NCBI GenBank assembly: GCA_039804105.1
Contig: JBDRZU010000001.1
Coordinates: 704,001 to 768,000 of the forward strand
Reading direction: 5' to 3'
DNA length: 64,000 nucleotides
DNA from: a candidate division WOR-3 bacterium
Lineage (GTDB): Bacteria > Hydrothermota > 32-111
Shown piece after piece: positions 30,719-45,490 of this stretch. The notes under the pieces were generated by a model that worked only from the letters and a program-made list of their open reading frames with translations, did no database searches and was not told the DNA's origin. Position 1 is the first letter of the stretch. Each line of letters begins with the position of its first letter. The translations under genes and the position numbers were made by a program.

Positions 30719-31489
30719 TTACCTTTTACTCAATTTTTCAATAACATTCTGAACCATCTTTTTTGCTTCAGATGCTCCATAAACCTCAACCGCTTTTTTA
30801 CAAACTCCATCGATCAAAACTTTTGTTGTTCTCTGGATATCATCTCTACTGATCTCAACAGGAACTACATCCTTTACATCAATTTTATCTTTGATATCGA
30901 GTGCTTTTTCAAGAATATCAACACTTGAAAGGTTTTCTTTAATGAAATTGTTCCAGATCTTTCGATCTCCACCTTGTGAAAACTCATCCACAAGATAGTT
31001 CAACTGTAAAACTTTTGAAATTAAAAGTTTCCTTTCAATTTCACCTAATCTGTTGACTTCCTGTGTTTGAAATTCCTGTTTGGGTGAATTAAAGGTTTGC
31101 TCAACAACTGGTTCTTTTATAGGTTCACTTTCAACTATCTTTGGCTCCTCAACTATTTTTGTAGTTTCAAAAATATTTTTGAATTCATTGTAAAACTTAT
31201 CGATTTCAACTTCCCCATTGATTTTAAAAAGTAGAAACTCACTTTTCTGAGAAATTAGAATAAGATTGTTACCATCAACTTTCATAAAGGAAATCAAAGG
31301 ATAGTTCATCTGAAACTTTTTAAATATAACATCACCAGCAGAACCAAGAAATGCTCCAATATCACCAAGATTTGCTGGTTGTTCTCCGAATTTTTCAAGT
31401 ACCGTCCCATCCTCTTTGTTCAACCTCATAGCCCCAAATATGGGAACAAGGTTCTTCAATTTTTCAACTATTTCAGAAAGTCCCATCAC
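30719..31489 (-). CDS. Hypothetical protein with roadblock/LC7-like N-domain
   Basis: 'LSEIVEKLKNLVPIFGAMRLNKEDGTVLE...DIGAFLGS' resembles a roadblock fold start. Confidence 0.6.
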   Translation of the reverse strand: MMGLSEIVEKLKNLVPIFGAMRLNKEDGTVLEKFGEQPANLGDIGAFLGSAGDVIFKKFQMNYPLISFMKVDGNNLILISQKSEFLLFKINGEVEIDKFYNEFKNIFETTKIVEEPKIVESEPIKEPVVEQTFNSPKQEFQTQEVNRLGEIERKLLISKVLQLNYLVDEFSQGGDRKIWNNFIKENLSSVDILEKALDIKDKIDVKDVVPVEISRDDIQRTTKVLIDGVCKKAVEVYGASEAKKMVQNVIEKLSKR

Positions 31490-32366
31490 TCACCCCTTCT
31501 TTATTTAAAAGTTCCCTGTATTTTTTCTTTGCTATCATACCACCAAGTTCTTCGATACCTTTTTCAAGGACCTTTTCAAAAAGAATTTTTTTCATATTTC
31601 TAATCTTCGCTTCATCCAAAAATCTGTCAGCACTTTCATCTATTTCAATCGTTTCATCTTTAAATTTTAAAAGACCTCCAATAGTTTCGAATCCAGAATT
31701 TGTTAAAACGTCTACTATGAAATGGAACCAATCCTTTGTGTTTGTGTTTTTGACTGCAAAAGTATCAAGGATATTGTTTAAACTTTGTTTGAATTCGTTC
31801 CTGATCTTTTCGACAAACGATTTATCAAAGATGAGTCCTTTTGAGATTAAATACTCGAGAGATTTATACGATTCAAGCAGAGGGAGATTGCTTTCCTTGA
31901 TTATTGTTCTTATATTCTTTTTACCATCAACTATTCTTATTATAACCCAATCAGTTTTTCTTAAACTTATATTATCCCCAAGCCCTTCAGCCCTTTTTTC
32001 AAGAACAGCATCAAATGATGGTAACCTTTTGAGTATATCATCGAATTCCATCCTTCTTTTTTCTATCTGATCCATCAAGGATGATGTATTCGACTGTGTA
32101 ATTGATACTTCATCTGTTGTTTCCCCATTTCTATACATAACAGTCCCAATCTTCTCAATAGAAAGGTTGTACAATGCCTCTTCGCCTGTAAAAGAGTTGT
32201 AAACAGCATGCTTTGGTAAACCTTTTTCAAAAAATATTTTTCCCTCTTTATTATCAATCTGAAAAATCAAAACACCTGTTCTCTCCCTCGATGATATCAA
32301 ACTTATAAATTCAACTGGACTGAAGATTTCAAGATTCGCTTTTAAATCTACCTTTTCTTTATCCAT
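31473..32366 (-). CDS. DUF4388 (PATAN-like) domain protein
   Basis: LKANLEIFSPVEFISLI...TGVL...GKIFFEKG...A......GEEAL, then a winged-helix-like 'W.IIRIVDGKKNIR.I'. Confidence 0.8.
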   Translation of the reverse strand: MDKEKVDLKANLEIFSPVEFISLISSRERTGVLIFQIDNKEGKIFFEKGLPKHAVYNSFTGEEALYNLSIEKIGTVMYRNGETTDEVSITQSNTSSLMDQIEKRRMEFDDILKRLPSFDAVLEKRAEGLGDNISLRKTDWVIIRIVDGKKNIRTIIKESNLPLLESYKSLEYLISKGLIFDKSFVEKIRNEFKQSLNNILDTFAVKNTNTKDWFHFIVDVLTNSGFETIGGLLKFKDETIEIDESADRFLDEAKIRNMKKILFEKVLEKGIEELGGMIAKKKYRELLNKEGVSDGTF

Positions 32367-33094
32367 TCCTCATCCTTATATTTTTGAATTAAATTCTGCA
32401 ACTTTTCATCTTCAAAATCTAATTCAACTTCTTCCCATTCAAAATCTAACTCCCTAAAAAAAATTTTATAAAACACAGAAGATATATTTTCGATATTATA
32501 AGTTAAACCTGTTAAATTTTCAATATTGTTTGAAAAATTTTTTCCATAAATTTTTTCCTGCGGAACAATACTCTCTTTTACAAGAATCGTTCCCTGTTGT
32601 AAAAAATTTGTTTCTGAGAATGTTTGTGCACTTCCAACAATCTTTTCTCCTTTGTAACTGATCTCATAAACCGATTGAGATCCAAAACAGTTTGCGATAA
32701 AGTTTTCCTTTTTTTCTCCCTGTGTTAGTTTCGCATCTATTTTTAACTCTTTAAAACCTTTGATAAAAATTTCTGCTATCCTTTTATACCTGTCTAAAAG
32801 TCCATAATTTTTTCCAAAATGTTCAATGTTTCCAACAAAGGAATATGTCAGATCACCACTATGAAGAACTGCCCTTCCACCCGTTATCCTTCGTGTGATA
32901 TCAATCTTTTCCTTTATAACATAATCATAATCGATACCAACATTGTACCTCTGATTGTATCCTATCGTTATTGAAGGTTTTGAAAATGAATAGAATCTAA
33001 AAAATATTGTATCAATATTTTTATAAGCCCATTCATCTATAGCCATATTTGTATAAACATCAAAAGCAGAGTAATTCAAAAAATAACCTTTCAT
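32348..33094 (-). CDS. Lipoate-protein ligase A / LipM-type octanoyltransferase family
   Basis: NMAIDE, RFYSF..PSITIGYNQ, RRITGGRAVLH..DLTYS, KIVGSAQ, LQQGT. Confidence 0.9.
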   Translation of the reverse strand: MKGYFLNYSAFDVYTNMAIDEWAYKNIDTIFFRFYSFSKPSITIGYNQRYNVGIDYDYVIKEKIDITRRITGGRAVLHSGDLTYSFVGNIEHFGKNYGLLDRYKRIAEIFIKGFKELKIDAKLTQGEKKENFIANCFGSQSVYEISYKGEKIVGSAQTFSETNFLQQGTILVKESIVPQEKIYGKNFSNNIENLTGLTYNIENISSVFYKIFFRELDFEWEEVELDFEDEKLQNLIQKYKDEEWIKKR

Positions 33095-33708
33095 TTTAAA
33101 ATTTTAAGCCAATCAGATAAAAGGAAATAGATTCTTCCAATAAGAAGTGAAATACGTGCCATCACAGTATAACCAAAAGATGCACCGAATGCAACCATGA
33201 TAAAGGTTATTCCTATTTTTGATCCCCATTTTAAAACACCTTTCTGTTCTTTTGAAAAATAGAAATAGATGAGTGTTGTTAAAACTCCAAAAATTATCAA
33301 AAAATTGTTAAAAGTTTCGAAATTGAAACCTGTTATCGTAACAAGTGTTGCTTGAACCTGTGGAAGTATAAATCCCTGTATCGCACCTGTAACACCAAGT
33401 CCAGCTCCAATACCAACTGTAAAAGCGATAGACCATCTTGAAAGCCAAGCAATATTAGGGAACCATCTAGTTAACATGATTATTCCAAAAAATGCAGGAA
33501 TCAACAGAATAAACTCTTTGTTTTTTATCATCGGATCAAGAAGCATTGGTTGTATAACATAAGCCCAAGTATAGATAAGCCAATATCCAGCTGTTATCCC
33601 AACATAGAGATGCTCTGCAAATTTATAGAAAGGGTTATCCTTATACAGAAAAGAATATATAAAAAGGGTCAAACCAGCAGCTATCCATATTCCAATGGTC
33701 GTTCCCAT
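33091..33708 (-). CDS. Uncharacterised multi-TM membrane protein (module subunit D, copy 2)
   Basis: YSFLYKDNPFYKFAE...MVAFGA.FGYT.MAR.SL.IGR, paralog of 36502..37107. Confidence 0.8.
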   Translation of the reverse strand: MGTTIGIWIAAGLTLFIYSFLYKDNPFYKFAEHLYVGITAGYWLIYTWAYVIQPMLLDPMIKNKEFILLIPAFFGIIMLTRWFPNIAWLSRWSIAFTVGIGAGLGVTGAIQGFILPQVQATLVTITGFNFETFNNFLIIFGVLTTLIYFYFSKEQKGVLKWGSKIGITFIMVAFGASFGYTVMARISLLIGRIYFLLSDWLKILK

Positions 33709-34544
33709 TATTTTCCTCCTTCTTTACTTTTTGTTCTCTTCTCTATGAAATACGCTATATTTCCTAAAATGATGAAAAGTATTATAACAAGATGAGAATA
33801 TGATTGCGATGCCATTCCAGCAACAGCAATATCAGGTTTACCAACAAGCACTTCATATTCAGCAGCTCCCTTCATTCCACCGACAAGTCCAACGATCTGG
33901 CCTGACTGATAGAAATAGTAAGCATCTGGAGCAGAAACAGCATTTAAAGCGAGTGCTATTTTCTGTTTGAATCTTCCTCCAGCATATTCGATCCAGACAA
34001 GATATGTTGCTCCTGCCTCAAGACCAACAAGAAGTGCTATATCGTTATAGTTATGCACATTCTTCATCATCGGGAAAGAATCGAGTGGAACATTTCGATA
34101 ATCAACTTTGAAATAATCTCTTATTTCCTTTCCAATTCCAACAATCTGTGCAACATATCCGGGTCTATAACCAAGGTTAATATAATCGACTCCATAAACA
34201 GCACCCATCTCCTTAGCAATCTTTTCAAGACCCATAGTTCCAAGGGGTGCTCCCAACTGCCATTGGACTATTAGTATAGGTTTCAGTTTATTTCTAAAAA
34301 GTTGTCTTAAAAGTGCTTCTAAAAATGGTTGTTGTTCAGGCATCGATGCTGCATCATAATCAATAGATATCATCACATTGCTACCTTCTGGTAAATTTTC
34401 GATATAATCATAAACATCCTTAACAGGTTTTGATGGAACAACTGGAAATTTTGGTTTCAAAAGTAAAGGAAGAATAACAACAATTGCAATGAATATATAT
34501 ATGAATCTTCTATCGACCTTTAAAAGTTTTAAAAAGATATTCAT
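33708..34544 (-). CDS. Uncharacterised TM-alpha/beta-TM protein (module subunit C, copy 2)
   Basis: GG.KGAAEYE, QS..H..II.FIILGNIAYF, paralog of 37107..37973. Confidence 0.8.
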   Translation of the reverse strand: MNIFLKLLKVDRRFIYIFIAIVVILPLLLKPKFPVVPSKPVKDVYDYIENLPEGSNVMISIDYDAASMPEQQPFLEALLRQLFRNKLKPILIVQWQLGAPLGTMGLEKIAKEMGAVYGVDYINLGYRPGYVAQIVGIGKEIRDYFKVDYRNVPLDSFPMMKNVHNYNDIALLVGLEAGATYLVWIEYAGGRFKQKIALALNAVSAPDAYYFYQSGQIVGLVGGMKGAAEYEVLVGKPDIAVAGMASQSYSHLVIILFIILGNIAYFIEKRTKSKEGGK

Positions 34545-34553
34545 AATGACTCC

Positions 34554-35192
34554 TTATGAAAGATAACTTCTTTCAATACCTAAAATTATTCTTATTGAAA
34601 CACCCAAAGCACCGAGAGAAATTCCAAGTCCAATTCCTCTTTTTGCAGCCATCTGCGGAACCTGCATGATCCATTCCGTGAACTTTGGAAGATAAGGTGA
34701 AATCTGTTCTCCCAGAGGAACTCTTCCAAGCATAACTATTATCGCTGTTATCAGAAGAAGTGTAGCATCAAAATTTCTCGCTCTAAAAGCTCTATATGCA
34801 GCTGATGCTATAAAGAATGCAAGAAGAGAAAACATAGTTGCCTGAAGTGGAACTATAAAATAGTTGTATATGTATGTAAAATATGACTTATCATCAAACG
34901 CTGTTCCAAACCTGACAGTTTCAACTATTCCAACAACAACTGTAGCAACAAAACCAAAAATCAACACAAGAGAAAAAAACCAGTTCTCATCTTTTCTTTT
35001 GACTTTTCTAAAATGCATCCCTATCAAAGAATCAACTCCAAGAAGCATTGTAAAACCTGCTATTATCGAATACCAGTTCAAAGAAATTTTTTCTATGTCA
35101 CCAAAAGGTTTATGTGGAATAAAAAAAGAAACTATCATAATCATACCAACAAGAAAGGTTATAAAAATCGGTATACCTTTTCCTTTTAACAT
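34554..35192 (-). CDS. Uncharacterised multi-TM membrane protein (module subunit B, copy 2)
   Basis: FSLLAF..ASAA.R.FRAR.FDATLLL...LGRVPLGE...IILGIER.YL, paralog of 37970..38647. Confidence 0.8.
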   Translation of the reverse strand: MLKGKGIPIFITFLVGMIMIVSFFIPHKPFGDIEKISLNWYSIIAGFTMLLGVDSLIGMHFRKVKRKDENWFFSLVLIFGFVATVVVGIVETVRFGTAFDDKSYFTYIYNYFIVPLQATMFSLLAFFIASAAYRAFRARNFDATLLLITAIIVMLGRVPLGEQISPYLPKFTEWIMQVPQMAAKRGIGLGISLGALGVSIRIILGIERSYLS

Positions 35193-35203
35193 TTATCCTC
35201 CTA

Positions 35204-36493
35204 CTAAACCTGTAACAAGTTTATCAACCAATCGAATAGATTTTTTATTATTTCAATCCTCAACCCATATCCTAAAACTGAAAAAACAAAACCTATTATG
35301 ATCAAAAACATTATAAAAACTTTTAAAAGATCTTCTGCTGCTATTGAACCAAGCATCATCGGCTCTTTCTGCAAATAAACTGATGCAGCCATCATCTCTT
35401 CACCTATAAGAGTGTAATCACAAGCTGCTACAAAGAATGGTAACTGTGCTGTTTCAGTTGTTCCAGATATCTGAATCGCTCCTATCGAATGCCCGGTTTC
35501 AGCAAGGATCAAAGATTCCGCAAAGAAAAGACCCTGTAAAAATACAGCACCAGGTTTTTCTCTCATCATCATACCATCAACTCCTGCAGCGTATCCAAAT
35601 TGATCCTGAGTTATATACATTATATCGTTTTTATTGTATAGATCTGGTCTCCCAGCCTCAGTAAATGCCTCCTTCACAACTTCCTGTGCTGTTGTCATAA
35701 CAACTGGATCATATGATGGAACAAGAATCCTCGTTTCATAATCAGCAACCTTTTTCGCTACTCTTCCAAGTATCGTTAGACCTGCTATAGTGGGTATATC
35801 TGTGACATATCCTATTCCAAGAATATACATTATAGGTTTTCCCATTTCAGTACTTCTTCCAACTGCCTCTTCAACAGCATCAAGTCCGTTTATTTTTCTT
35901 ATATAAAGATCTTTTCCACTCTTTGCAAGATTCAAATAGTATAAGAAAACAAAAGCGATTATGATCAAAGAAACCAGAACAGGTATCCTAGAAAGGTTAA
36001 ACCATGATGATTTTGAAAATATTGCTTCTGTTTCTCCTGTTATGTAAAAAGTATCGTTTCCAAAAATATATACACCATTTTTCGAATATTCTGATCCGTT
36101 TGAAATCAATTTGTTTAAAAACTCTTCGTTGATCATATTTTTACTTAAAATTCCTGTATAGTAATAATTTGTATTATCTTTTACCCTTGAAGGTTCCTCT
36201 TCAGAACTCACATCTCTCACCTGCATTGAAGATACAAGAAGATCAGTTGCAACAACAATAACATTGTTTGAATCATCCCTTCTTAAAACTGTCAAAAACC
36301 AGTTTCCCAAAGTATCGGGGAAACACCAGTTGATCTGGATTCCTCCACCACCATCGTTTGGTATATCGTTCCCTGTAAGTTTAAAATCCAAAAAAGGGTT
36401 TTGATTTTCTAAAAAGATTAAACTATCACTTTCCTGAGAAAAGAGTAAAATTGAAAAAACTAAAAAAATCAAAAGAAGGGTTTTTTTTAACAC
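35204..36493 (-). CDS. DUF6754-like membrane-anchored protein (module subunit A, copy 2)
   Basis: Signal peptide, extracytoplasmic domain, TM, IRKINGLDAVEEAVGRSTEMG...AESLILAE...QLPFF...DYTLIGEE. Confidence 0.75.
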   Translation of the reverse strand: MLKKTLLLIFLVFSILLFSQESDSLIFLENQNPFLDFKLTGNDIPNDGGGGIQINWCFPDTLGNWFLTVLRRDDSNNVIVVATDLLVSSMQVRDVSSEEEPSRVKDNTNYYYTGILSKNMINEEFLNKLISNGSEYSKNGVYIFGNDTFYITGETEAIFSKSSWFNLSRIPVLVSLIIIAFVFLYYLNLAKSGKDLYIRKINGLDAVEEAVGRSTEMGKPIMYILGIGYVTDIPTIAGLTILGRVAKKVADYETRILVPSYDPVVMTTAQEVVKEAFTEAGRPDLYNKNDIMYITQDQFGYAAGVDGMMMREKPGAVFLQGLFFAESLILAETGHSIGAIQISGTTETAQLPFFVAACDYTLIGEEMMAASVYLQKEPMMLGSIAAEDLLKVFIMFLIIIGFVFSVLGYGLRIEIIKNLFDWLINLLQV

Positions 36494-36501
36494 CTCTCCT
36501 C

Positions 36502-37107
36502 CTATTTAATAATTCCAAGCCAATCGGACAGAAGAAACTGTATTCTACCGATGAAAAGGGAAACTCTCGCCATAATAGTGTATCCGAACGCTGCACCAAA
36601 TGCAACCATTATGAATGTGATTCCAGCTTTCGAAACCTTTCCAATAAAACCTTTATGTTCGAGTGAAAAGAAAAAATAAACAAGAGTTGAAATAACTCCA
36701 ACAACTATGATCAAACTTCCAATATCAAGTTTTAATGGCATTGTGGCATAAATCTGTTTAAAAAGAAATTCAAAAGAGGATGGAACGGAAAGCCCTGTTC
36801 CAGCACCAACAACAAAAGCTATTGGTATTCTTGAAAGATATGCAACATTTTTGAAAAATCTTGAAAACATCAAAAGACCTAAAACAAGTGGTATCAGAAC
36901 AAGAAAATTTTTATCATAAACAAGTGGATTGAAAACTTTTGTGATTATCGTGTTATGCCAGTAAACCGATATTCCATAACCTATAGAGATTCCAACAAGA
37001 AGGTATTCTGCAAACTTATAGAAAGGATTATCTTTATATAAAAATGAATAGATTGCAAGAGTGAGTAATGCAGCTATCCATACCCAGAAATTCGTTGATA
37101 TAGCCAT
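36502..37107 (-). CDS. Uncharacterised multi-TM membrane protein (module subunit D, copy 1)
   Basis: Paralog of 33091..33708. Confidence 0.8.
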   Translation of the reverse strand: MAISTNFWVWIAALLTLAIYSFLYKDNPFYKFAEYLLVGISIGYGISVYWHNTIITKVFNPLVYDKNFLVLIPLVLGLLMFSRFFKNVAYLSRIPIAFVVGAGTGLSVPSSFEFLFKQIYATMPLKLDIGSLIIVVGVISTLVYFFFSLEHKGFIGKVSKAGITFIMVAFGAAFGYTIMARVSLFIGRIQFLLSDWLGIIK

Positions 37108-37973
37108 TATTTACCCTCCTTTTTTTTCTTAACAAAATATGCTATGTTACCAAGGATTATTAAAATTATAAAGAATATATGTGCTGAGGATTGAGCATCC
37201 ATTCCTATTGAAGCATCCTTTCTGCCACCATAAACATTCTTCTTATCAAGTAAATGTTCATACTCAGCAGCACCTTTAAGACCACCAAGCATTCCTATCG
37301 CCTGTTTTGATTGAAGATACGAATAATATTCTGCTGCTGAAACTGCTGTTGTTCCTATTCCCATCTTTAAACCATATCTACCGTTGGCATATATAAGCCA
37401 TGTTAAAACAACAGAACTTCCAGCGAGCTCAACCATAAGATTTATATCGTTATAATTTTTTATTCCATTCATTATTTCAAGTTCTGAAAGTTTATTCCCA
37501 TAGCCATCCTCATTGAATGTTTCTATTATATCTTCACCCATTTTCAAAACGACAGCACTTACTCCTGGAACATAAGCAAGAAGTGTAATATCCTTTCCAA
37601 GTTCTTTTGGATTATCAGGATTACTCTTGTTCCACTCTCTTAAAACATTATCTATAGCATCCTGAGCCATTCCAGCACCTTGTGGATAAAGTGTCACAAA
37701 AAGCACCCTTAAATTGTTTGATAGTGCATGTGCTGCAATTACTTTTGCCATCGGATGTAATTCAGCCATAGTTGAAGGATCATAATCAGCACCAATAAGA
37801 ACGACTCCACCTTCTGGAATCGAATCCTCTATGAAATCATAAATCGATTTTACCGGAGGTGTTGTTTTCATTGGAAATCCAACGGGGAATATGAAAGGAA
37901 TGATTATACACAAAGCGAGTACAAGATAGATCCATCTTTTATCAAGATTGTTGATAAAGTTGATAAATTTCAT
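37107..37973 (-). CDS. Uncharacterised TM-alpha/beta-TM protein (module subunit C, copy 1)
   Basis: Start MKFINF (ATGA overlap, GGAGG RBS), paralog of 33708..34544. Confidence 0.8.
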   Translation of the reverse strand: MKFINFINNLDKRWIYLVLALCIIIPFIFPVGFPMKTTPPVKSIYDFIEDSIPEGGVVLIGADYDPSTMAELHPMAKVIAAHALSNNLRVLFVTLYPQGAGMAQDAIDNVLREWNKSNPDNPKELGKDITLLAYVPGVSAVVLKMGEDIIETFNEDGYGNKLSELEIMNGIKNYNDINLMVELAGSSVVLTWLIYANGRYGLKMGIGTTAVSAAEYYSYLQSKQAIGMLGGLKGAAEYEHLLDKKNVYGGRKDASIGMDAQSSAHIFFIILIILGNIAYFVKKKKEGK

Positions 37974-38647
37974 TTTCCACCTCCGAGATATTTCCTTTCG
38001 ATTCCAAGGATTATCTTGATAGAGGTCGCTATGATTCCAAGTTGGACGCCTATGAGTATTCCCCTCTGTGCTGCCATATTTGGATATTTCAAGATCCATT
38101 CAACAACATCTGGAAGTCCTTTATAAATAAATTCTCCAAGTGGTACTCTACCGAGTGTAACTATTCCAGCTGTTACAAGAAGCAAAGTTGCATCAAAACT
38201 TCTCGCTCTAAACGATCTGAAGGCTGCTGATGCCATGTAGAAAGCAAGAAGTGAAAAAATCGTTGATTGCATCGGCATCTGCATATATAGATATGTATAC
38301 ATCAAAGGTGTTGTATCGGATGGTTTTACTGATGGAAAAATTTTCATCCAAAGAGTTGTTGGCATAAATGCACCACCAAATATTCCAAGTACCGCTGTAA
38401 CAAAAAGAGAGGAAAGCACTATTATCGAGTACTGCCAACCTTCAATTCTTCTTTTTATCTTTGTAATATGGAGTTCAACGGTTGATTGAACAGCAATTAA
38501 GTATGTGAATGCAGAAACAATTATCAACCAATCAAGCATCATGTTGTAAAAATTTTTCGATGCTGGATGTGGAACGAAAAATTGCAATATGAGCGCTATA
38601 CCAAATATCGCTGAAACTAAAAGTGGTAATGTTCTTCTTACAAACAT
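37970..38647 (-). CDS. Uncharacterised multi-TM membrane protein (module subunit B, copy 1)
   Basis: Paralog of 34554..35192. Confidence 0.8.
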   Translation of the reverse strand: MFVRRTLPLLVSAIFGIALILQFFVPHPASKNFYNMMLDWLIIVSAFTYLIAVQSTVELHITKIKRRIEGWQYSIIVLSSLFVTAVLGIFGGAFMPTTLWMKIFPSVKPSDTTPLMYTYLYMQMPMQSTIFSLLAFYMASAAFRSFRARSFDATLLLVTAGIVTLGRVPLGEFIYKGLPDVVEWILKYPNMAAQRGILIGVQLGIIATSIKIILGIERKYLGGGK

Positions 38648-38655
38648 ATAAACTC

Positions 38656-39861
38656 CTAACTTTTAAATATGAATCTTAACATTTCAAGAATCTTATCAAG
38701 AAAAACAAGATGCCCACCGGTTAACCATGAAATTATGAGAATGAAGAAATAAAGTGTGATCAAAATTATTATAAATCCTTTGAAATAATCTTGTGCTTTC
38801 AAAGTTCCAAGAAGAAGTGGCTCTCTAGAAAGGTAAGCACTTGCAGCGTAAAGTTCTTCTCCGATTATCGTGTAATCACATGAGGTAATAAAGAAAGGAA
38901 GTTGAGTAACAGCATCAGTACCTGCAATCTGAATAGCACCTGTTGTGTTTCCTGCTTCTGCCATGATAAGTGATTCTGCCCAAAACATTCCAAGTAAAAG
39001 GTTAGTTGCGGGTTTTTCTCTTGTCATTATACCAGAAACAGCGGCTGCGTATCCAAATTGGGAATCAGTTAAAAAGAAAATATCATTATCATTGTAAACA
39101 TCAGGTCTTCCCGCCTCTGAATAAGATTCCTTCACTACCTCTTTTGCAACAGTCATAACTATTGGGTCCCTGTTCGGAACGATCAGTTTTGTTTCATACT
39201 CTGCGATTTTTTTTGCAACTGGACCAAGGATGTTCAAAGAAGCGATCGTTGCTATATCTGACATTGTTGAAGACCCGGGAACATATAAAACGGGTCTTCC
39301 CATTTCGGTTGCTCTTCCAACCGCTTCATCGAGTGTGTCAAGTCCAGATATTTTTCTAACAAAAAGATCTTTTCCCTTTCTTACACTCTCAACAAGAAAA
39401 ACGATTATCGCCGTGTAAACTATTATCATCAAAAGTAATATGGTTTTTTCAGTTTTGAACAGGTTCGGTTTTGGAGATACTGAACCTGCGATCAAACATT
39501 TTTCAGATTCGTTACCTGAACTATCAGTTGTAGAAATATAGTATTCATATTTTTTCTGATATGATAACCCTTCATCAACTATCTTTACAGGAAAAGAGTT
39601 AAAGGTTTTTATGACTTTTAATGTCGTATCGTTTTCCTCTTTTCTGTAAAGTTTGAACATATAATTGTTACCTACAAGAATTTTCTGACAGGAAATTTCG
39701 AGTTTTGTTCCATCGTCGTCTCTCACATCCTTTATCGTGAACTCTTTTAAAATTGTTTGATCAACTTTCAAAACATTTTCATCTTTAACTGTTTCATTCT
39801 GAGAAAAAGATAACACAAACGATAGAAGTATTAAGATGAAAAATAAAGTTTTGTTTTTCAT
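38656..39861 (-). CDS. DUF6754-like protein with Fn3-like extracytoplasmic domain (module subunit A, copy 1)
   Basis: Signal peptide, Fn3-like 'VDEGL....KYEYYISTTDSSGNES', paralog of 35204..36493. Confidence 0.75.
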   Translation of the reverse strand: MKNKTLFFILILLSFVLSFSQNETVKDENVLKVDQTILKEFTIKDVRDDDGTKLEISCQKILVGNNYMFKLYRKEENDTTLKVIKTFNSFPVKIVDEGLSYQKKYEYYISTTDSSGNESEKCLIAGSVSPKPNLFKTEKTILLLMIIVYTAIIVFLVESVRKGKDLFVRKISGLDTLDEAVGRATEMGRPVLYVPGSSTMSDIATIASLNILGPVAKKIAEYETKLIVPNRDPIVMTVAKEVVKESYSEAGRPDVYNDNDIFFLTDSQFGYAAAVSGIMTREKPATNLLLGMFWAESLIMAEAGNTTGAIQIAGTDAVTQLPFFITSCDYTIIGEELYAASAYLSREPLLLGTLKAQDYFKGFIIILITLYFFILIISWLTGGHLVFLDKILEMLRFIFKS

Positions 39862-39871
39862 TTGACTCCTT

Positions 39872-40993
39872 TTATTCTTCGATTAATTCAACATTCGCTC
39901 TTGGAAGTATTATCCTTTTACCATCTTCGAATTCAAACTCAAGCACTCTAACATGTGCTTCGGTTTCGATTTTTTGTAACTGTGATGGAAGTCCAACTAC
40001 TCTTCCAATAGCACCAAAATATGGTTGCCTTATGATTCTTACTATAGAATTTATGTCCATTCCCATTTCAGCATGTTTTGATTCTTCAACAACGGTATCT
40101 ATATCATAGGTTACAATAACTTCAGGTCTCATAACACCAGCTCTTATCTGTGTTGCCCCATTTATTGAAGCTCTTTTTCCATCATTTTTTGAAAGTATTT
40201 CAAAAGTTTTCTTTGCCATCGTCATCTGACCAAAACCTTCTGTAACGATTACTGTGATTCCCTTCTCTTCTTGACCGGTTATTGCAACACCTATCTCTTC
40301 ACCAAGGAAATCTTTAAGATCCTTATCATCTATACCGCCAACGACTATTCCCAAAACACCTTTTTTTACACATTCATTCAAAACTTCACTCGTCACAAGA
40401 GAACCACCGATGACAATTTTTCCTTTGAGTTCATCTGTGATATCATTTTTTGTTAAAACATAGTCGGGTGATTTTGCAACAAGTTTCAACTCTCCCTTCA
40501 CTTCTCCACCGATTCCAAATATTCCCTGAATGAATGTAGCAGGTGTTTGAACAACTATTCCTTCATTCTCTATAACCTCTACAACTTTTCCGTTAACATA
40601 AGCATCTATTTCAACTTTTTTTGGTGGTTTCCTTAAAGTCAACATTCCTGTTATATCAGAATAGTTTTCAACTATTCCATCTATTGGTGAAGGAATAGAA
40701 GTTTTGAAAAGTCCAAAAAATCCTTTAGATTCTGCAATTATCTGATCTTTTTTTATATTTTCACCAACAGATACCTTTAAAAATGAAGATGCTTCTTTTG
40801 GTGGGACTCCAAGTTTTCCAGCAAGATTCAATCTTTCAACATCTCCAGGGAGTTCCGTTTTTGCAACTATATCATCTGCCTTTACTATATCTCCAACTTT
40901 TACAAGAACCTCTCCTTTTAAAGGTAATCTTCTTTCCTTTTTTACTATTGCTTTTTCAGTAACTTTTAAACCTGGTGTATATGAATGTGCCAT
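39872..40993 (-). CDS. Conserved hypothetical protein with barrel-sandwich-hybrid (biotinyl/lipoyl-like) motifs and KOW-like C-terminus
   Basis: LVKVGDIVKADDIVA, VSVGENIKKDQIIAE, SPIDGIV, VRIIRQPYFGAIGRV. Confidence 0.7.
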   Translation of the reverse strand: MAHSYTPGLKVTEKAIVKKERRLPLKGEVLVKVGDIVKADDIVAKTELPGDVERLNLAGKLGVPPKEASSFLKVSVGENIKKDQIIAESKGFFGLFKTSIPSPIDGIVENYSDITGMLTLRKPPKKVEIDAYVNGKVVEVIENEGIVVQTPATFIQGIFGIGGEVKGELKLVAKSPDYVLTKNDITDELKGKIVIGGSLVTSEVLNECVKKGVLGIVVGGIDDKDLKDFLGEEIGVAITGQEEKGITVIVTEGFGQMTMAKKTFEILSKNDGKRASINGATQIRAGVMRPEVIVTYDIDTVVEESKHAEMGMDINSIVRIIRQPYFGAIGRVVGLPSQLQKIETEAHVRVLEFEFEDGKRIILPRANVELIEE

Positions 40994-41004
40994 AATTCCT
41001 CCAT

Positions 41005-42798
41005 TTATTTCTCAGGATAGACATTTAACGCTTTAATCCATTTTTTTAACTTCTCTACCCTTTCATTATCATTTTCAGGCAGATTGAAAGGTCTTCTTCC
41101 CCTTGCATCAACTATAACCCCAACAACTCCACCTTCAAGTTCCGCTTCTATCTCTTTACCTTTACCATTTCCAAGATCGAGCCCTTTTGATGGAGTGATA
41201 ATCGCTTTCACCTTTTTGTTGAGTTCAAGTGGAATAACTCCCATATCTCCAAAATTGAAACTGTATTCTTTTCCTTCAAATTTTATTTTTACAGCTTCCT
41301 GCCCTTCTTTTATGTTTCCTATCGGTGCAATACATGAACCCAACCTTATCAAACAATCCTTTTCAAAAACTTCAGTTGCTGCCTGTTCATGGACTGTTGA
41401 CAGAACACCAAGTTGTGGCATCATGAATATTGAATCAACAGTTAACATCGTTATCCCTTCAGGTAAAAAAGCATCTATCATCATCAAAGCTGACTGCACT
41501 CTTCTTGGAGCATGAGAAAGAACACCACCTGAACCAACGATTAGATTCAGTGTCAGCATGTTCACAAGCGTTTCACCTGTACTCGTTTGTTCGAAAGCAT
41601 CGGAAATTGTTCTTTCCTTCTGGACTCCCTTTAAACCAACAGCCATCGTCTTATGTTGTTCTAATGCCAATCTTAATGCTTCTCTTGATATCGCCTGTTC
41701 TATCTGTAATTCATCAAGAGTTGATGGAATGGTTGTTGGTCTTATCATCTTATTTCTTATTCTGTTCCTCAAATCCTTTTCATCCATATGAAATGGAACC
41801 CATCTCATTATATTTTTTAAACCTGCTTCTTTCACAACATTTGATATAGAGTAACTCATTCCCAGGTTTGCTGAAACTGTTCTATTGAAAGTGTTTTGGA
41901 AATAGGAGAATACATCTGTTGTTGCTCCACCTATATCAACACCAAGAACTTCTATCTTATCCCTTTTACCAATCGTTTCTATCAAAAGTCCAACAGCACC
42001 AGGTGTTGGCATAATTGGTACATCAGTCATATCCATAAGTTTTTTGTATCCAGGTGCCTGAGCCATCACATGTTCCATAAAAAGATCATGTATCTTATCT
42101 CTTGCTGGCTTCAAATTTTCTTTTTCAAGTGTTGGTCTTAGATTTTCAACTATGTAAAGTGCTGTTTTCTTTTCAAGTCGTTCTTTTATTTCTTCAACAG
42201 CTTTATTGTTTCCAGCATATATAACAGGGAGTTTGTATCCAGCACCAAATCTTGGTTTCGGATCAGCTGCCTGTATAATCTCTGCGAGTTGAACAACATG
42301 TGTTATAGTCCCTCCGTCGGTTCCACCTGAAAGAAGTATCATATCGGGTCTTAAGGTTCTGATCCTTTTTATCCTCTCATGATCCATTCTCTTATCGTTT
42401 GTTGCTATAACATCCATCACTATTGAACCAGCACCGAGTGCTGCTCTTGCTGCTGATTCTGCTGACATTTTATCCACAACACCGGCAACCATCATCTGTA
42501 AACCACCACCTGCTGATGATGTTGAGATATAGATATCTACACCATCACCTTCTGCTTTCTCTCTCTTTATTATTTTGTCTCCATCAAGAATTTTTATCTC
42601 AGCAAGTTCTTCAACCTCTTTTATAGCGTTGAGAACACCTTTTGTAACATCCTCATAAGGTGCCTCAACCGTTGTTGGTGCTTCACCTCTAACTATCAAA
42701 CGATACTCATTATCTCTTTTCTCTATTAAAATAGCTTTAGTTGTGGTGGATCCACAATCGGTTGCAAGTATTCGTGTGATTTGATCCTTCTCTTTCAT
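41005..42798 (-). CDS. Glutamate mutase L (GlmL)-like ASKHA-fold ATPase
   Basis: Phosphate-1 motif LATDCGSTTTK, SSAGGGL, LLSGGTDGG, IMPTPGAV, phosphate-2 motif VDIGGATTDVFS. Confidence 0.85.
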   Translation of the reverse strand: MKEKDQITRILATDCGSTTTKAILIEKRDNEYRLIVRGEAPTTVEAPYEDVTKGVLNAIKEVEELAEIKILDGDKIIKREKAEGDGVDIYISTSSAGGGLQMMVAGVVDKMSAESAARAALGAGSIVMDVIATNDKRMDHERIKRIRTLRPDMILLSGGTDGGTITHVVQLAEIIQAADPKPRFGAGYKLPVIYAGNNKAVEEIKERLEKKTALYIVENLRPTLEKENLKPARDKIHDLFMEHVMAQAPGYKKLMDMTDVPIMPTPGAVGLLIETIGKRDKIEVLGVDIGGATTDVFSYFQNTFNRTVSANLGMSYSISNVVKEAGLKNIMRWVPFHMDEKDLRNRIRNKMIRPTTIPSTLDELQIEQAISREALRLALEQHKTMAVGLKGVQKERTISDAFEQTSTGETLVNMLTLNLIVGSGGVLSHAPRRVQSALMMIDAFLPEGITMLTVDSIFMMPQLGVLSTVHEQAATEVFEKDCLIRLGSCIAPIGNIKEGQEAVKIKFEGKEYSFNFGDMGVIPLELNKKVKAIITPSKGLDLGNGKGKEIEAELEGGVVGVIVDARGRRPFNLPENDNERVEKLKKWIKALNVYPEK

Positions 42799-43127
42799 TT
42801 ATCCTCCTTAATATCCTTCTTGTTTCTCTTATTTGTATTTTCAAATTCCTCAATATATTTTATTAGTTTCTCAACAGAATCTCTTTCTTCAAAAATCAAA
42901 GATGCTTCACGGTATTCAGATATGTTGAAAAATGTTAAAATAATTGGTTCCAAAAATATCATTATCTGAGCACTTATAAAATTCATAGGTTTTATCGATT
43001 CCAGAAACATTATCGCTGGAGCGGTTAATCCCCTTTTGACTATACTTACTGCAATCTTTTTTAGAATCTCCTCTTTTCTTTCAAGAGGTATCTCTTTCGG
43101 ACTTACAGGCTGAAAACTCTTATCCAT
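42795..43127 (-). CDS. Small conserved hypothetical protein
   Basis: KIA..IVKRGLTAPAIMFLESIKPMNFI. Overlaps both neighbours. Confidence 0.75.
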   Translation of the reverse strand: MDKSFQPVSPKEIPLERKEEILKKIAVSIVKRGLTAPAIMFLESIKPMNFISAQIMIFLEPIILTFFNISEYREASLIFEERDSVEKLIKYIEEFENTNKRNKKDIKEDK

Positions 43128-44571
43128 TATTTTCCCTATACCAGTTAACATAAAGATTTTTTAAAGCGTATATATCATCAGGTCTTGAAACTGGAGTGTT
43201 TGATGGAGCATTTTTAACTTTTTCGGGTTCATTTTTTGCTTCCTCATCTATTCTTTTCATCGCTTCGATAAAACCATCAAGAGTTTCTTTTGATTCAGTT
43301 TCTGTTGGTTCAATCATGATCGCCTCAGAAACTATAAGCGGGAAATAAACTGTTGGTGCATGGAATCCATAATCGAGCAGACGTTTTGCTATATCGAGTG
43401 TTGTTATATTGTAGTCCTTTTTATGCTTTCTTCCACTGAAAACGACCTCGTGCATCGTTTCTGTCTTATATGGTAAATCGTATATATCCTGAAGTTTTCT
43501 TTTTATATAGTTTGCATTCACTATCGCCATCTGAGTTGCTTCAGTAAGTCCATCTCTTCCCATTATTTTCAAATATGCCCATGCTCTCACCATTATGTTA
43601 ACATTACCATAAAAAGAATGCAATGAACCTATCGAGTTTTTAGGATAATCAAGGTAATATTTCCCATTTTCAAATTTCACAATGTATGGTGGTAAAAATT
43701 CTTTCAACTTTTCAACAACTGCAACACCACCAGCACCAGGTCCACCACCTCCATGTGGTGTCGAAAATGTTTTATGCAGATTCAGATGCAGAATATCAAA
43801 ACCTATTTTACCTGGTTTGACGATTCCCATCAAAGCGTTCATGTTTGCACCGTCCATATATATCAGGCCACCTTTACCATGAACTATTTCGGAAATCTTT
43901 TCTATTTTACTTTCAAAAATTCCTAAAGTGTTGGGATTCGTTATCATTATTCCTGCAGTATCTTCATCCATGTTTTTTTCAAGATCCTCAAGATCTATCT
44001 CTCCTGAACTGTCCGATTTGATCTGCACTGATCTAAATCCTGATAGAGTTGCTGAAGCAGGATTCGTTCCGTGTGCTGAATCTGGAATAAGAATTTTTGT
44101 TCTTTTTTCACCTTTACTTTTAAAGTAATCACTTATTATCATCATTCCAGCGAATTCTCCATGAGCACCTGCAACTGGCTGTAGAGAAATTCCATCAAAA
44201 CCTGTAACCTTCAAAAGCATATCCTGTAATTCATACATTATTTCAAGTATACCCTGAACATCCTCTTCATCCTGATATGGATGAAGTTTTGTAAATTTTG
44301 GATTTGAAGAGATCTCCTCATTTACAACAGGATTATATTTCATCGTACATGATCCTAACGGATAAAAACCTTTCTGAAGATGATGGTTTTTATTTGATAA
44401 CAAAACAAAATGTCTTAAAACATCAATTTCAGATACTACTGGTAGATTTAAATCCTGATTTCTAAGATTTTCCTTGATACAATCTGAAACCTCAATTGGG
44501 AAACTATTTTCAGGTAAAGAGACGATATTTGAATTTTCATCTGATAATTTAAATATCAATTTATCGTACAT
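43120..44571 (-). CDS. gcvPB: Glycine dehydrogenase (decarboxylating) subunit 2
   Basis: YPLGSCTMKYNP, QPVAGAHGE, SAHGTNPASA, PLP-lysine motif LNLHKTFSTPHGGGGPG, IEPTETESK. Confidence 0.97.
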   Translation of the reverse strand: MYDKLIFKLSDENSNIVSLPENSFPIEVSDCIKENLRNQDLNLPVVSEIDVLRHFVLLSNKNHHLQKGFYPLGSCTMKYNPVVNEEISSNPKFTKLHPYQDEEDVQGILEIMYELQDMLLKVTGFDGISLQPVAGAHGEFAGMMIISDYFKSKGEKRTKILIPDSAHGTNPASATLSGFRSVQIKSDSSGEIDLEDLEKNMDEDTAGIMITNPNTLGIFESKIEKISEIVHGKGGLIYMDGANMNALMGIVKPGKIGFDILHLNLHKTFSTPHGGGGPGAGGVAVVEKLKEFLPPYIVKFENGKYYLDYPKNSIGSLHSFYGNVNIMVRAWAYLKIMGRDGLTEATQMAIVNANYIKRKLQDIYDLPYKTETMHEVVFSGRKHKKDYNITTLDIAKRLLDYGFHAPTVYFPLIVSEAIMIEPTETESKETLDGFIEAMKRIDEEAKNEPEKVKNAPSNTPVSRPDDIYALKNLYVNWYRENNG

Positions 44572-44600: not shown

Positions 44601-44629
44601 ATTTTATATTATTAAGATAATAATGTCAA
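44601..44629 (-). promoter_or_regulatory. Putative sigma70 promoter of the gcvPB-GlmL operon
   Basis: TTGACA-17 bp-TAAAAT, then AAGGAG RBS. Confidence 0.7.
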
Positions 44630-44719: not shown

Positions 44720-45490
44720 ATGAAAAAAATCTTGATCACAATTCTTGTAATTATAACAGTTCAAGTGCTGTTCTCTTATGATTACTATTTACAAAACGAT
44801 GATGGAACTTTCAATTACTTCTGGTATGGGAATGTCAGAAGAGCATCAAAGTATTATGTTTCAGACACTTGTACCTTGAAAATGGTTTATTGGGGAAGAT
44901 ATACCAAACGAACAGAAATCGACACGATATTGATTTTTAACGACAATTCTGGTTTCCCTGGAAATGTGATTTACAGTGATACACATGCGGTAAACACTAA
45001 CAGCACACCTATGATAGTTTCAGATACAGTGTCAACCCAAGTGCTGGTATGCGGAACATTCTATGTGGGAATGTATGCGAGATGTCAGGATCAACCAGCA
45101 AACGCTTTGTGTTACTTTTTGTCAGATTCCACTCCTTCTTTTAAAACATTCTGGGATAGCACAGGAACATGGGTGGTTCAAACAAGAGGAGATTATATAA
45201 TTCATGCAAAAGTTTCTGGTCCATACGGTATAAGTTTAAGATTGTATGAAGAAAATATTCTTGGAGAAAAAGGAACAAAGAGTAATTTCAGTTTTCTTGT
45301 CAATGAAAATTCAGTTGTATTAAACAATATTAGAAGTTTTACTATAATAGATAAAAATGGAAGAAAAATACTCGATGGTATTTCAAAAAATGTTGTACTC
45401 GATTTAACAAAATTTAAAAGTGGTATTTATTTTCTTGTAGTAAAAGATCTACACAATCAAACACATAAAAAGAAGTTAATAAAATTCTAA
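44720..45490 (+). CDS. Secreted protein with T9SS type-A-like C-terminal sorting domain
   Basis: Signal peptide. C-terminal 'IIDKNGRKI...LDLTKFKSGIYFLVVK...KKLIKF'. Confidence 0.75.
   Translation: MKKILITILVIITVQVLFSYDYYLQNDDGTFNYFWYGNVRRASKYYVSDTCTLKMVYWGRYTKRTEIDTILIFNDNSGFPGNVIYSDTHAVNTNSTPMIVSDTVSTQVLVCGTFYVGMYARCQDQPANALCYFLSDSTPSFKTFWDSTGTWVVQTRGDYIIHAKVSGPYGISLRLYEENILGEKGTKSNFSFLVNENSVVLNNIRSFTIIDKNGRKILDGISKNVVLDLTKFKSGIYFLVVKDLHNQTHKKKLIKF

Follow-up and report, generated by a model that had tools for sequence, protein, structure and literature searches.

A GlmL/MutL-family ATPase trio and a four-subunit DUF6754 membrane cassette are functionally tied in many bacterial groups

The window analysed here is a stretch of 64,000 nucleotides (nt) from a candidate division WOR-3 bacterium (contig JBDRZU010000001.1, positions 704,001 to 768,000). 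Its minus strand carries a block of eleven genes that encode a GlmL/MutL-family ASKHA ATP-binding protein (the ATPase), two partner proteins, called here 'small' and the 373-residue protein, and two copies of a four-subunit membrane module. The ATPase and its two partners are referred to below as the trio, and the A-B-C-D module as the cassette. The trio and the cassette are functionally tied, and are kept or lost together in many bacterial groups. For the interpretation that we favour, that one cytoplasmic ATP engine serves several substrate-specific membrane cassettes, the chances are evenly balanced, and uptake of small nutrients is put forward tentatively as the role. A bolder reading, with a probability of roughly one in four, is that the system is a new class of primary active transporter, universal in some phyla: a single actin/Hsp70-fold ATPase would power all of the substrate-specific four-subunit cassettes, acting on the conserved cytoplasmic domain of subunit A by cycles of swivelling and release like those of a reactivase.

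Subunit A has more than 8000 homologues. A genome collection was scanned with the A alignment, which gave 587 confirmed stretches, and the locus counts that follow refer to the best 78 of these. By the titles of their records they belong to WOR-3, Stahlbacteria, Edwardsbacteria, Eisenbacteria, Latescibacterota, Fermentibacteria, Cloacimonadota, Zixibacteria, Coatesbacteria, Poribacteria, Scalindua/Brocadiaceae, Ignavibacteriales, Methylomirabilis and others. Of the 78 loci, 64 have all four subunits in A-B-C-D order, six of them twice and three of them three times; the other 14 loci are mostly cut short by contig ends. At L017, L053 and L061, which have long flanks, A alone was recognised at a BLASTP E-value of 1e-5, and these may be solo A genes or cassettes with very diverged partners. 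Small irregularities of order were seen in five loci, and in L065 and L074 the order is B-C-D-A, followed by TrkH, TrkA and asparaginase. The whole trio lies directly before the cassette in 10/78 loci; in one further locus only the 373-residue protein is adjacent, and in another the ATPase gene is found on the other strand.

The non-adjacent arrangement was followed in large Poribacteria and Cloacimonadales genomes. All five of these have an ATPase of 609-634 residues elsewhere, 61-66% identical and with 'small' adjoining it. The 373-residue protein also adjoins the ATPase in the three Cloacimonadales and was not seen at that place in the two Poribacteria; it is present in five of five further genomes. 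Among 251 sampled genomes of Planctomycetota, DUF6754, the family of subunit A, was found in 65, the 373-residue protein in 64 (E-value up to 1e-10) and the ATPase in 67 (E-value up to 1e-20). DUF6754 and the 373-residue protein occur together in 61 genomes, DUF6754 only in 4, the 373-residue protein only in 3 and neither in 183. The corresponding figures for DUF6754 and the ATPase are 62, 3, 5 and 181, and all three proteins are present together in 60 of the 71 genomes that have any of them. Fisher values for these tables are about 1e-49, which overstates the association, since these are draft genomes and related genomes are not independent, although the pattern itself is plain.

The window's own phylum has DUF6754 in 90 of 100 genomes and 58 of 59 genera, at 1-5 matches per genome, and the host genome itself has two DUF6754 genes and a single PF13941 (ATPase) gene. 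In the phylum of an Ignavibacteriales genome (G007), all 201 of the genomes sampled contain DUF6754, most of them with 4-6 matches and one with 10; these match numbers are not exact copy numbers. G007 has five DUF6754 matches and one match to the 373-residue protein. Taken together, the counts point to a single trio per genome, accompanied by one to several cassettes.

Trio and cassette have also been lost together. One genus of the window's own phylum (g17, comprising genomes G271, G285, G306, G326, G331 and others) has no DUF6754 (0/9 genomes) and no PF13941 (0/5, the five genomes checked being 91-95% complete), and five of five sister genera of the same family retain PF13941. The sister locus reads gcvPB, small, ATPase, 373-residue protein, a 117-residue protein, PLD; in genus g17 it reads gcvPB, a 114-residue protein, PLD (L115-L118), and the 114-residue membrane protein is 67% identical to its 117-residue counterpart. 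The trio has thus been cleanly excised, and two separate loci were lost together, because the cassette of the sister genome lies 22 kb from the trio. This co-loss is a natural experiment on the role of the system.

The first-pass annotation of the window, made from its letters alone, had proposed a stand-alone machine in which an actin-like ATPase is coupled to a hetero-oligomeric membrane complex. The coupling is supported by the co-occurrence and the co-loss described above; the transporter, secretion or energy-coupling role named with it is one that the system may have.

Anatomy of the trio and of the membrane cassette

The ATPase matches PF13941 (MutL) over the entire profile (E 5.8e-128, 427.9 bits; residues 10-482 against profile positions 1-450 of 450), the Pfam gathering cut-off being 27 bits for this family and for PF20539 (DUF6754) alike. 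The phosphate-1, phosphate-2 and adenosine motifs of the ASKHA fold, the first two of which the first-pass annotation had reported as intact, are invariant in 18 of 18 aligned homologues. Beyond the end of the profile runs a C-terminal extension of ~115 residues, which by alignment is common to all cassette-linked ATPases and which gave only chance-level Pfam matches at E-values up to 10. ATPases from different phyla are 60-73% identical. A PDB sequence search with the ATPase as a single sequence returned no match.

MutL/GlmL is described in PMC4682846 as a reactivating chaperone of glutamate mutase. Membership of PF13941, and the presence of a B12-binding small subunit of the mutase type in the host genome, would fit an ATPase that is simply a GlmL-type helper of a B12-dependent mutase and lies beside membrane genes by chance. 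This explanation is extremely improbable. The ATPase scores below the cut-off of all three curated NCBIfam models (NF040745, the GlmL equivalog, 228.9 bits against 475; NF040744, Or-4, 217.8 against 600; TIGR01319, glmL_fam, 165.3 against 204.05). No match to Met_asp_mut_E (PF06368), the E subunit of glutamate mutase, was found in the host genome (1.81 Mb, 85% complete), which has a single PF13941 gene, and neither glmS nor glmE lies beside the ATPase, whose neighbours are gcvPB, 'small' and the 373-residue protein. The host genome gave three B12-binding matches, namely the mutase-type small subunit, a radical SAM enzyme and, next to a histidine kinase, a B12-binding_2/B12-binding protein. The first of these is flanked by its own MeaB and adenosyltransferase, about 200 kb from the block. 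Moreover, the presence of the ATPase tracks DUF6754 and not mutases, both in the 251 Planctomycetota and in the window's own phylum. Because the scores fall short of three curated cut-offs, no E subunit was found and the B12 mutase has its own MeaB, the ATPase is most probably not a helper of a B12 mutase. The host B12 cluster itself (L004, C1:948315-951662) consists of an adenosyltransferase (CobA/CobO/BtuR), the MeaB GTPase, the B12-binding subunit of 134 residues and an acyl-CoA dehydrogenase.

In 'small', the alignment shows a helical core that is conserved, together with a charged tail, and the protein gave nothing beyond chance against Pfam even at E-values up to 10. Its homologues lie directly before the ATPase gene in 15 loci, five of which have no cassette nearby, and 'small' is therefore a fixed upstream partner of the ATPase. 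The 373-residue protein has only weak, sub-threshold Pfam matches (Biotin_lipoyl and RnfC_N, with NQRA_N also weak in homologues). An AlphaFold2 (AF2) model with a predicted local distance difference test (pLDDT) score of 85 divides it into three domains, which were compared with known structures by fold search. The background of this search lies at Z = 7-8, and the matches are slightly above or at that level, so that they name folds and not relatives. Domain 1 is a barrel-sandwich hybrid (NqrA 4u9o_A, Z 7.6 over 65 residues, root-mean-square deviation (rmsd) 2.2; RnfC 8ahx_C, Z 7.4 over 67 residues). Domain 2 has the fold of a swivelling domain (RraA 1j3l_A, Z 9.7 over 132 residues, rmsd 4.0; Enzyme I 2wqd_A, Z 9.4 over 103 residues, rmsd 2.5; AF_0055, Z 9.4; rifampin phosphotransferase, Z 8.8). 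Domain 3 is a KOW/SH3-like barrel (Spt5 KOW 5ohq, Z 8.9 over 52 residues, rmsd 1.4; NdhS and PsaE near Z 8), which bears out the earlier reading of a barrel-sandwich protein with a KOW-like C-terminal domain.

A PDB search with the 373-residue protein as a single sequence gave no match, and its profile matched lipoyl/biotinyl domains only, with a best E-value of 0.0024. No invariant or nearly invariant lysine or histidine was found in its alignment of 16 sequences, and the lysine nearest to the expected position in the hybrid barrel (K97) is replaced in L046, in L083 and in both fused paralogues described below. Because no lysine or histidine is invariant, the protein is neither a lipoyl/biotinyl carrier, modified by the neighbouring ligase, nor a phospho-histidine relay acting through its swivelling domain, and both candidates were ruled out.

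Paralogues of the ATPase and of the 373-residue protein (37-45% and 27-37% identity, the latter lacking the KOW domain) neighbour one another in some Planctomycetota. In Cloacimonadales the paralogous pair is fused into one protein of 1024 residues (L098:9187-12258) or 951 residues (L099:8971-11823), which suggests that the ATPase and the 373-residue protein act together. The paralogous pairs (L098, L099 and Planctomycetota L109-L114) have no 'small' and no cassette nearby. Pfam analysis of the surroundings of the stand-alone trios and the paralogous pairs revealed no common partner and no hint of a client.

The membrane cassette is present twice in the window. Subunits A1 and A2 match PF20539 (E 2e-117, 391.2 bits, and E 9e-112, 372.8 bits); B, C and D, like 'small', belong to no Pfam family, and searches at E-values up to 10 with the A core, C1, C2, B1 and D1 gave chance-level matches only. 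The paralogues are 40% (A1/A2), 44% (B1/B2), 35% (C1/C2) and 52% (D1/D2) identical, which upholds the duplicated four-subunit module seen at first pass, and the two cassettes are, judging from these values, old paralogues. The B1 alignment comprises 29 sequences with a mean identity of 48%, and mean identity in the D1 alignment is 57%. Comparison by hhalign indicated that B and D are unrelated (probability 3.5%) and gave a probability of 0.6% for A and C, with no sign of an internal duplication. Neither a conserved cofactor motif nor a cysteine or histidine pattern was found in the cassette, and B1, D1, B2, C2 and D2 contain no cysteine at all. The ESM Atlas yielded no usable match for A1 or C1.

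Hydropathy analysis of A shows a signal peptide, the FN3 region, a transmembrane helix followed by a basic stretch, a core of ~200 residues and a second transmembrane helix. By the positive-inside rule, the DUF6754 core between the two helices should be cytoplasmic, and the part of A outside would comprise the signal peptide and FN3 only. The first-pass annotation had recognised the DUF6754 likeness, the signal peptide and an extracytoplasmic domain, all of which stand, with the correction that the extracytoplasmic part is limited to FN3 and that the conserved core would lie in the cytoplasm. FN3 was the only part of A matched in a PDB sequence search with the A profile, and it is modelled by AF2 with good pLDDT at residues 38-112. 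For A1 as a whole (52 sequences) the mean pLDDT is 67.7, and the core appears, at low confidence, as alternating strands and helices, with residues 266-352 under 50. Mean column conservation is 0.84 in the core and 0.37 in the outside part, and by this measure the A core is the best-conserved part of the whole system. Identity between A1 and A2 is distributed likewise, with 60% in the core, 27% outside, and 8% and 18% in the two transmembrane helices. Longer forms of A carry extra FN3 repeats or unannotated N-terminal sequence, and no substrate-binding or enzyme domain was found fused to them. Subunit C has a single helix at each end with ~220 residues between, a middle domain whose charge distribution leads us to infer that it lies outside. 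This layout, and the polytopic nature of B and D, agree with the first-pass description on hydropathy. The start of C1 was moved from 38099, as first given, to 37973 on the evidence of 79 homologues, which leaves a protein of 288 residues whose gene shares an ATGA overlap with B1.

Two further explanations bear on this anatomy. In one, the trio would be a reactivase-like maintenance device and not a motor: the cassette would work autonomously, as an ion-driven or enzymatic unit, and ATP would serve only to load, exchange or remove a ligand or subunit tightly bound to the cytoplasmic domain of A. The only described members of the ATPase family are held to reactivate glutamate mutase (PMC4682846), and the parts of the trio match the reactivase architecture given in PMC7674605, with an Hsp70-like ATPase, a swivelling domain and an exchangeable small subunit. 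The α/β appearance of the A core in its weak model is also that of cofactor-binding domains. We nevertheless regard the maintenance role as quite unlikely. The cassette has none of the conserved motifs or residue patterns of a cofactor site, no reactivase chain came up in the fold matches listed (though this does not exclude one), and the extreme conservation of the ATPase, at 60-73% across phyla, suggests constant and not occasional use.

In the other explanation, the FN3 and C ectodomains would sense a signal, which the cytoplasmic domain of A would relay to the ASKHA protein. Variable ectodomains over a fixed cytoplasmic domain are consistent with such a signalling unit, as are the sensor kinases found near the paralogous pair or its fused form in L114 and L099. 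However, neither an output domain nor a DNA-binding protein or a kinase is a conserved neighbour of the system, and two subunits of six transmembrane helices per cassette would be needless for signalling, which makes this reading very unlikely.

Operon frame and gene neighbourhood

The eleven co-directional open reading frames (ORFs) fill positions 33091-43151 of the window and were all found where the first-pass annotation had placed them, with spacings of -4 to +11 nt. The block overlaps the upstream gcvPB gene by 32 nt and the downstream lipoate ligase gene by 4 nt (Table 1). Because a promoter-like site precedes gcvPB and no convincing terminator was found inside the eleven-gene block, transcription probably begins with gcvPB and continues as far as lplA. 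The operon is thus probably longer than the eleven-gene block. It may extend further into a DUF4388 (PATAN-type) gene at 31473-32366, because this gene and the one for the lipoate ligase share 19 nt. Upstream of the promoter region of the operon, a divergent ORF of 256 residues (44720-45490, plus strand) has a hydrophobic N-terminal stretch and belongs to no Pfam family.

Table 1. Features of the operon in the window, listed from upstream to downstream on the minus strand.
Feature	Position	Strand	Basis or remark
Promoter-like site before gcvPB	44601..44629	-	Consensus scan, 11/12 hexamer matches; pattern match only
gcvPB (glycine dehydrogenase subunit 2)	43120..44571	-	Pfam GcvP2_C and GDC-P; flanking, non-core
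'Small' protein, 118 residues	42795..43151	-	No Pfam family; 4-nt overlap with ATPase gene
GlmL/MutL-family ASKHA ATP-binding protein, 597 residues	41005..42798	-	PF13941
373-residue partner protein: barrel-sandwich hybrid, swivelling β/β/α and KOW/SH3-like domains	39872..40993	-	AF2 model and fold matches
A1: predicted signal peptide, outside FN3, transmembrane helix, cytoplasmic DUF6754 core, transmembrane helix	38656..39861	-	PF20539 at residues 131-378, FN3 matches, hydropathy
B1: polytopic membrane protein, about 6 predicted transmembrane helices	37970..38647	-	Hydropathy
C1 (revised start): predicted transmembrane helix, ~220-residue outside domain, transmembrane helix	37107..37973	-	Homologues, hydropathy, alignment
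D1: polytopic membrane protein, about 6 predicted transmembrane helices	36502..37107	-	Hydropathy
A2, paralogue of A1	35204..36493	-	PF20539
B2	34554..35192	-	Paralogue of B1 by identity (44%)
C2	33708..34544	-	Paralogue of C1 by identity (35%)
D2	33091..33708	-	Paralogue of D1 by identity (52%)
Lipoate-protein ligase (LplA/LipB catalytic domain)	32348..33094	-	Pfam LplA-B_cat; flanking, probably same operon

The flanking genes recur elsewhere. The gcvPB gene lies upstream of the system in L011, L019, L023, L025 and L026, with gcvH and gcvPA ahead of it in L026, and it adjoins the ATPase gene in the sister genera of the window's own phylum; a lipoate ligase gene lies downstream in L019, L023 and L026. 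In several lineages the system is thus seen inside a glycine-cleavage/lipoylation frame (gcvH-gcvPA-gcvPB ... lplA), of which only gcvPB heads the operon in the window. Dependence of the system on glycine cleavage was considered and is not shown, as genus g17, which has no system, keeps gcvP (13 of 15).

Clustering of 1102 ORFs from the 78 loci revealed no family that recurs across phyla beyond A-D and the trio, and Pfam analysis of 86 co-directional neighbours gave no common partner. These neighbours include a split transketolase, a 2-hydroxyacid dehydrogenase, asparaginase with TrkHA, phosphatidylserine decarboxylase, M23 and C25 peptidases, TonB_C proteins, GFO/MocA and PhyH enzymes, a sulfatase and housekeeping genes. 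Genes for TonB_C-domain proteins were found directly upstream of cassettes at L007:8450-9121 and L074:6743-7396. In Rfam searches, tRNA was the only family recovered from the window and from 17 loci selected because a long gap precedes A; five genomes gave no lysine riboswitch.

This neighbourhood bears on a further alternative, in which the system is an envelope device: a cassette anchored in the inner membrane would reach across the periplasm, and the ATP engine would power work on the wall, the outer membrane or the surface layer, such as tethering, remodelling or the export of components. FN3 repeats make up the part of A that lies outside, and longer forms have more of them, which resembles a spacer more than a binding pocket; every phylum seen is, by the titles of its records, a diderm lineage; and TonB_C proteins, M23 peptidases, LptC/LptA-like proteins, SLBB proteins and a C25 peptidase are among the co-directional neighbours at several loci. 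Against this, several diverged cassettes with one engine are more typical of substrate-specific systems, and no envelope gene recurs across phyla. In addition, a whole genus has lost the system and nothing at the locus has obviously taken its place, which speaks against an essential role in the envelope of that genus. We consider an envelope device unlikely.

Candidate mode of action

In the model that we favour, A-D would form one inner-membrane complex, with B and D (about six helices each) as its membrane body. The ~220-residue domain of C and the FN3 stalk of A would project outside, and beneath the membrane the A core, held on two poorly conserved anchor helices, would provide the docking platform for the trio. 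Docking would occur through the KOW/SH3-like domain of the 373-residue protein. ATP binding and hydrolysis by the ASKHA protein would then move the swivelling domain of the 373-residue protein, and this movement would drive work in the cassette. One single-copy engine would serve all cassettes of a genome, each handling a different substrate, most likely by uptake. Substrate-specific transport is favoured because a single engine goes with several diverged cassettes, whose differences are greatest on the outside. The physical complex, docking on the A core, ATP hydrolysis, and transport with its direction all belong to the model, and each is proposed on that footing. Complex prediction for the ATPase, 'small' and A(126-401) gave scores of 0.22 and 0.24, below the mark of 0.32, which counts neither for nor against an association.

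Several observations weigh against this model. The subunits resemble no known transporter and, to our knowledge, no transporter is driven by an ASKHA ATPase. The transmembrane helices of A are barely conserved (8% and 18%), as would be expected of simple anchors more than of a channel subunit that is tightly packed. Outside the membrane, A has an FN3 stalk with no recognisable substrate-binding domain, which would fit an envelope device equally well, and AF2 models the core of A poorly (residues 266-352), the very part where docking is proposed. The neighbours of the cassettes are a mixture of metabolic, envelope and housekeeping genes with no recurrent partner, and neither the window and 17 loci (Rfam) nor the five genomes (lysine riboswitch) yielded a riboswitch. 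Finally, the gcv/lplA neighbourhood is conserved, yet its conservation does not amount to dependence, given that gcvP is retained in genus g17.

The system is common and strongly constrained, and databases label one of its parts as a B12-enzyme helper and the rest as a 'domain of unknown function'. If it is indeed an ATP-driven machine built on an ASKHA protein, it would be a new type of engine for membrane biology, a third kind beside the ABC/RecA-type and P-type engines. Thousands of annotations would then be corrected, and a gap would be filled in the metabolic models of many uncultured lineages. New in this analysis are the three-domain anatomy of the 373-residue protein, the joint distribution of three proteins across Planctomycetota, the loss of trio and cassette together in one genus where the trio was cleanly excised, the universality in the phylum of G007, the conserved gcv/lplA operon frame, and the negative results for riboswitches, lipoylation and a phospho-relay.

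Comparison with known systems

No subunit matched a characterised complex in Pfam, NCBIfam, PDB sequence or fold searches, and in this respect the impression of an undescribed system gained at first pass was borne out. A1 and A2 are full members of DUF6754 (PF20539), a family that exists as a catalogue entry only. Searches for 'DUF6754' or 'PF13941' found no paper in a literature from which subscription journals are largely absent, and as far as was found the system apparently has no published description.

GlmL/MutL and its counterpart in ornithine degradation, Or-4, share PF13941 with the ATPase described here, in which the ASKHA motifs are intact. The differences lie in the sub-cut-off scores, the ~115 extra C-terminal residues and the lack of glmS and glmE, which were found neither beside the ATPase nor elsewhere in the 85%-complete genome. 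Unlike GlmL/MutL, the ATPase is paired with 'small' and the 373-residue protein and is co-distributed with DUF6754 cassettes.

The diol and glycerol dehydratase reactivases (DdrAB and GdrAB) offer a similar list of parts. As described in PMC7674605, where PDB 1NBW is cited, glycerol dehydratase reactivase combines a swivelling domain with an ATPase domain of the Hsp70-like kind, and its small β subunit is released when ATP is hydrolysed. The likeness is one of architecture, and no homology was found: neither the ATPase nor the 373-residue protein as a single sequence had a PDB sequence match, and reactivase chains are not among the listed fold matches, the lists being filled by other chains. 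In the system described here the swivelling domain is carried by a separate protein that also bears barrel-sandwich and KOW-like domains, and the presumed client is a membrane cassette and not a B12 enzyme.

RnfC and NqrA have an N-terminal barrel-sandwich hybrid in common with the 373-residue protein (Z 7.4-7.6, which is background level), and both are peripheral subunits of membrane complexes. Rnf and Na+-NQR differ in that the block has no iron–sulphur (FeS), flavin or NADH motifs, A-D have no Rnf or Nqr Pfam matches, and no other Rnf or Nqr subunit is present. Walker A, CxxC and CxxCH patterns occur in 0 of the 11 proteins, as the first-pass annotation had noted for Walker, FeS and heme motifs. 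There is also no ABC_tran match, so that membership of the ATP-binding cassette (ABC) transporters is not indicated.

Parallels in organisation are offered by the group II energy-coupling factor (ECF) transporters and the phosphotransferase system, in which a single shared energising module serves many substrate-specific membrane modules. Unlike these, the block has no ABC ATPase or Walker A motif, and A-D have no Pfam homology to EcfT/S or to EIIC/D. The middle domain of the 373-residue protein shares the fold of the phosphohistidine domain of Enzyme I (2wqd_A), as in the phosphotransferase system, but lacks an invariant histidine. What the system has in common with both is a single engine in each genome, accompanied by one or several membrane units that have diverged.

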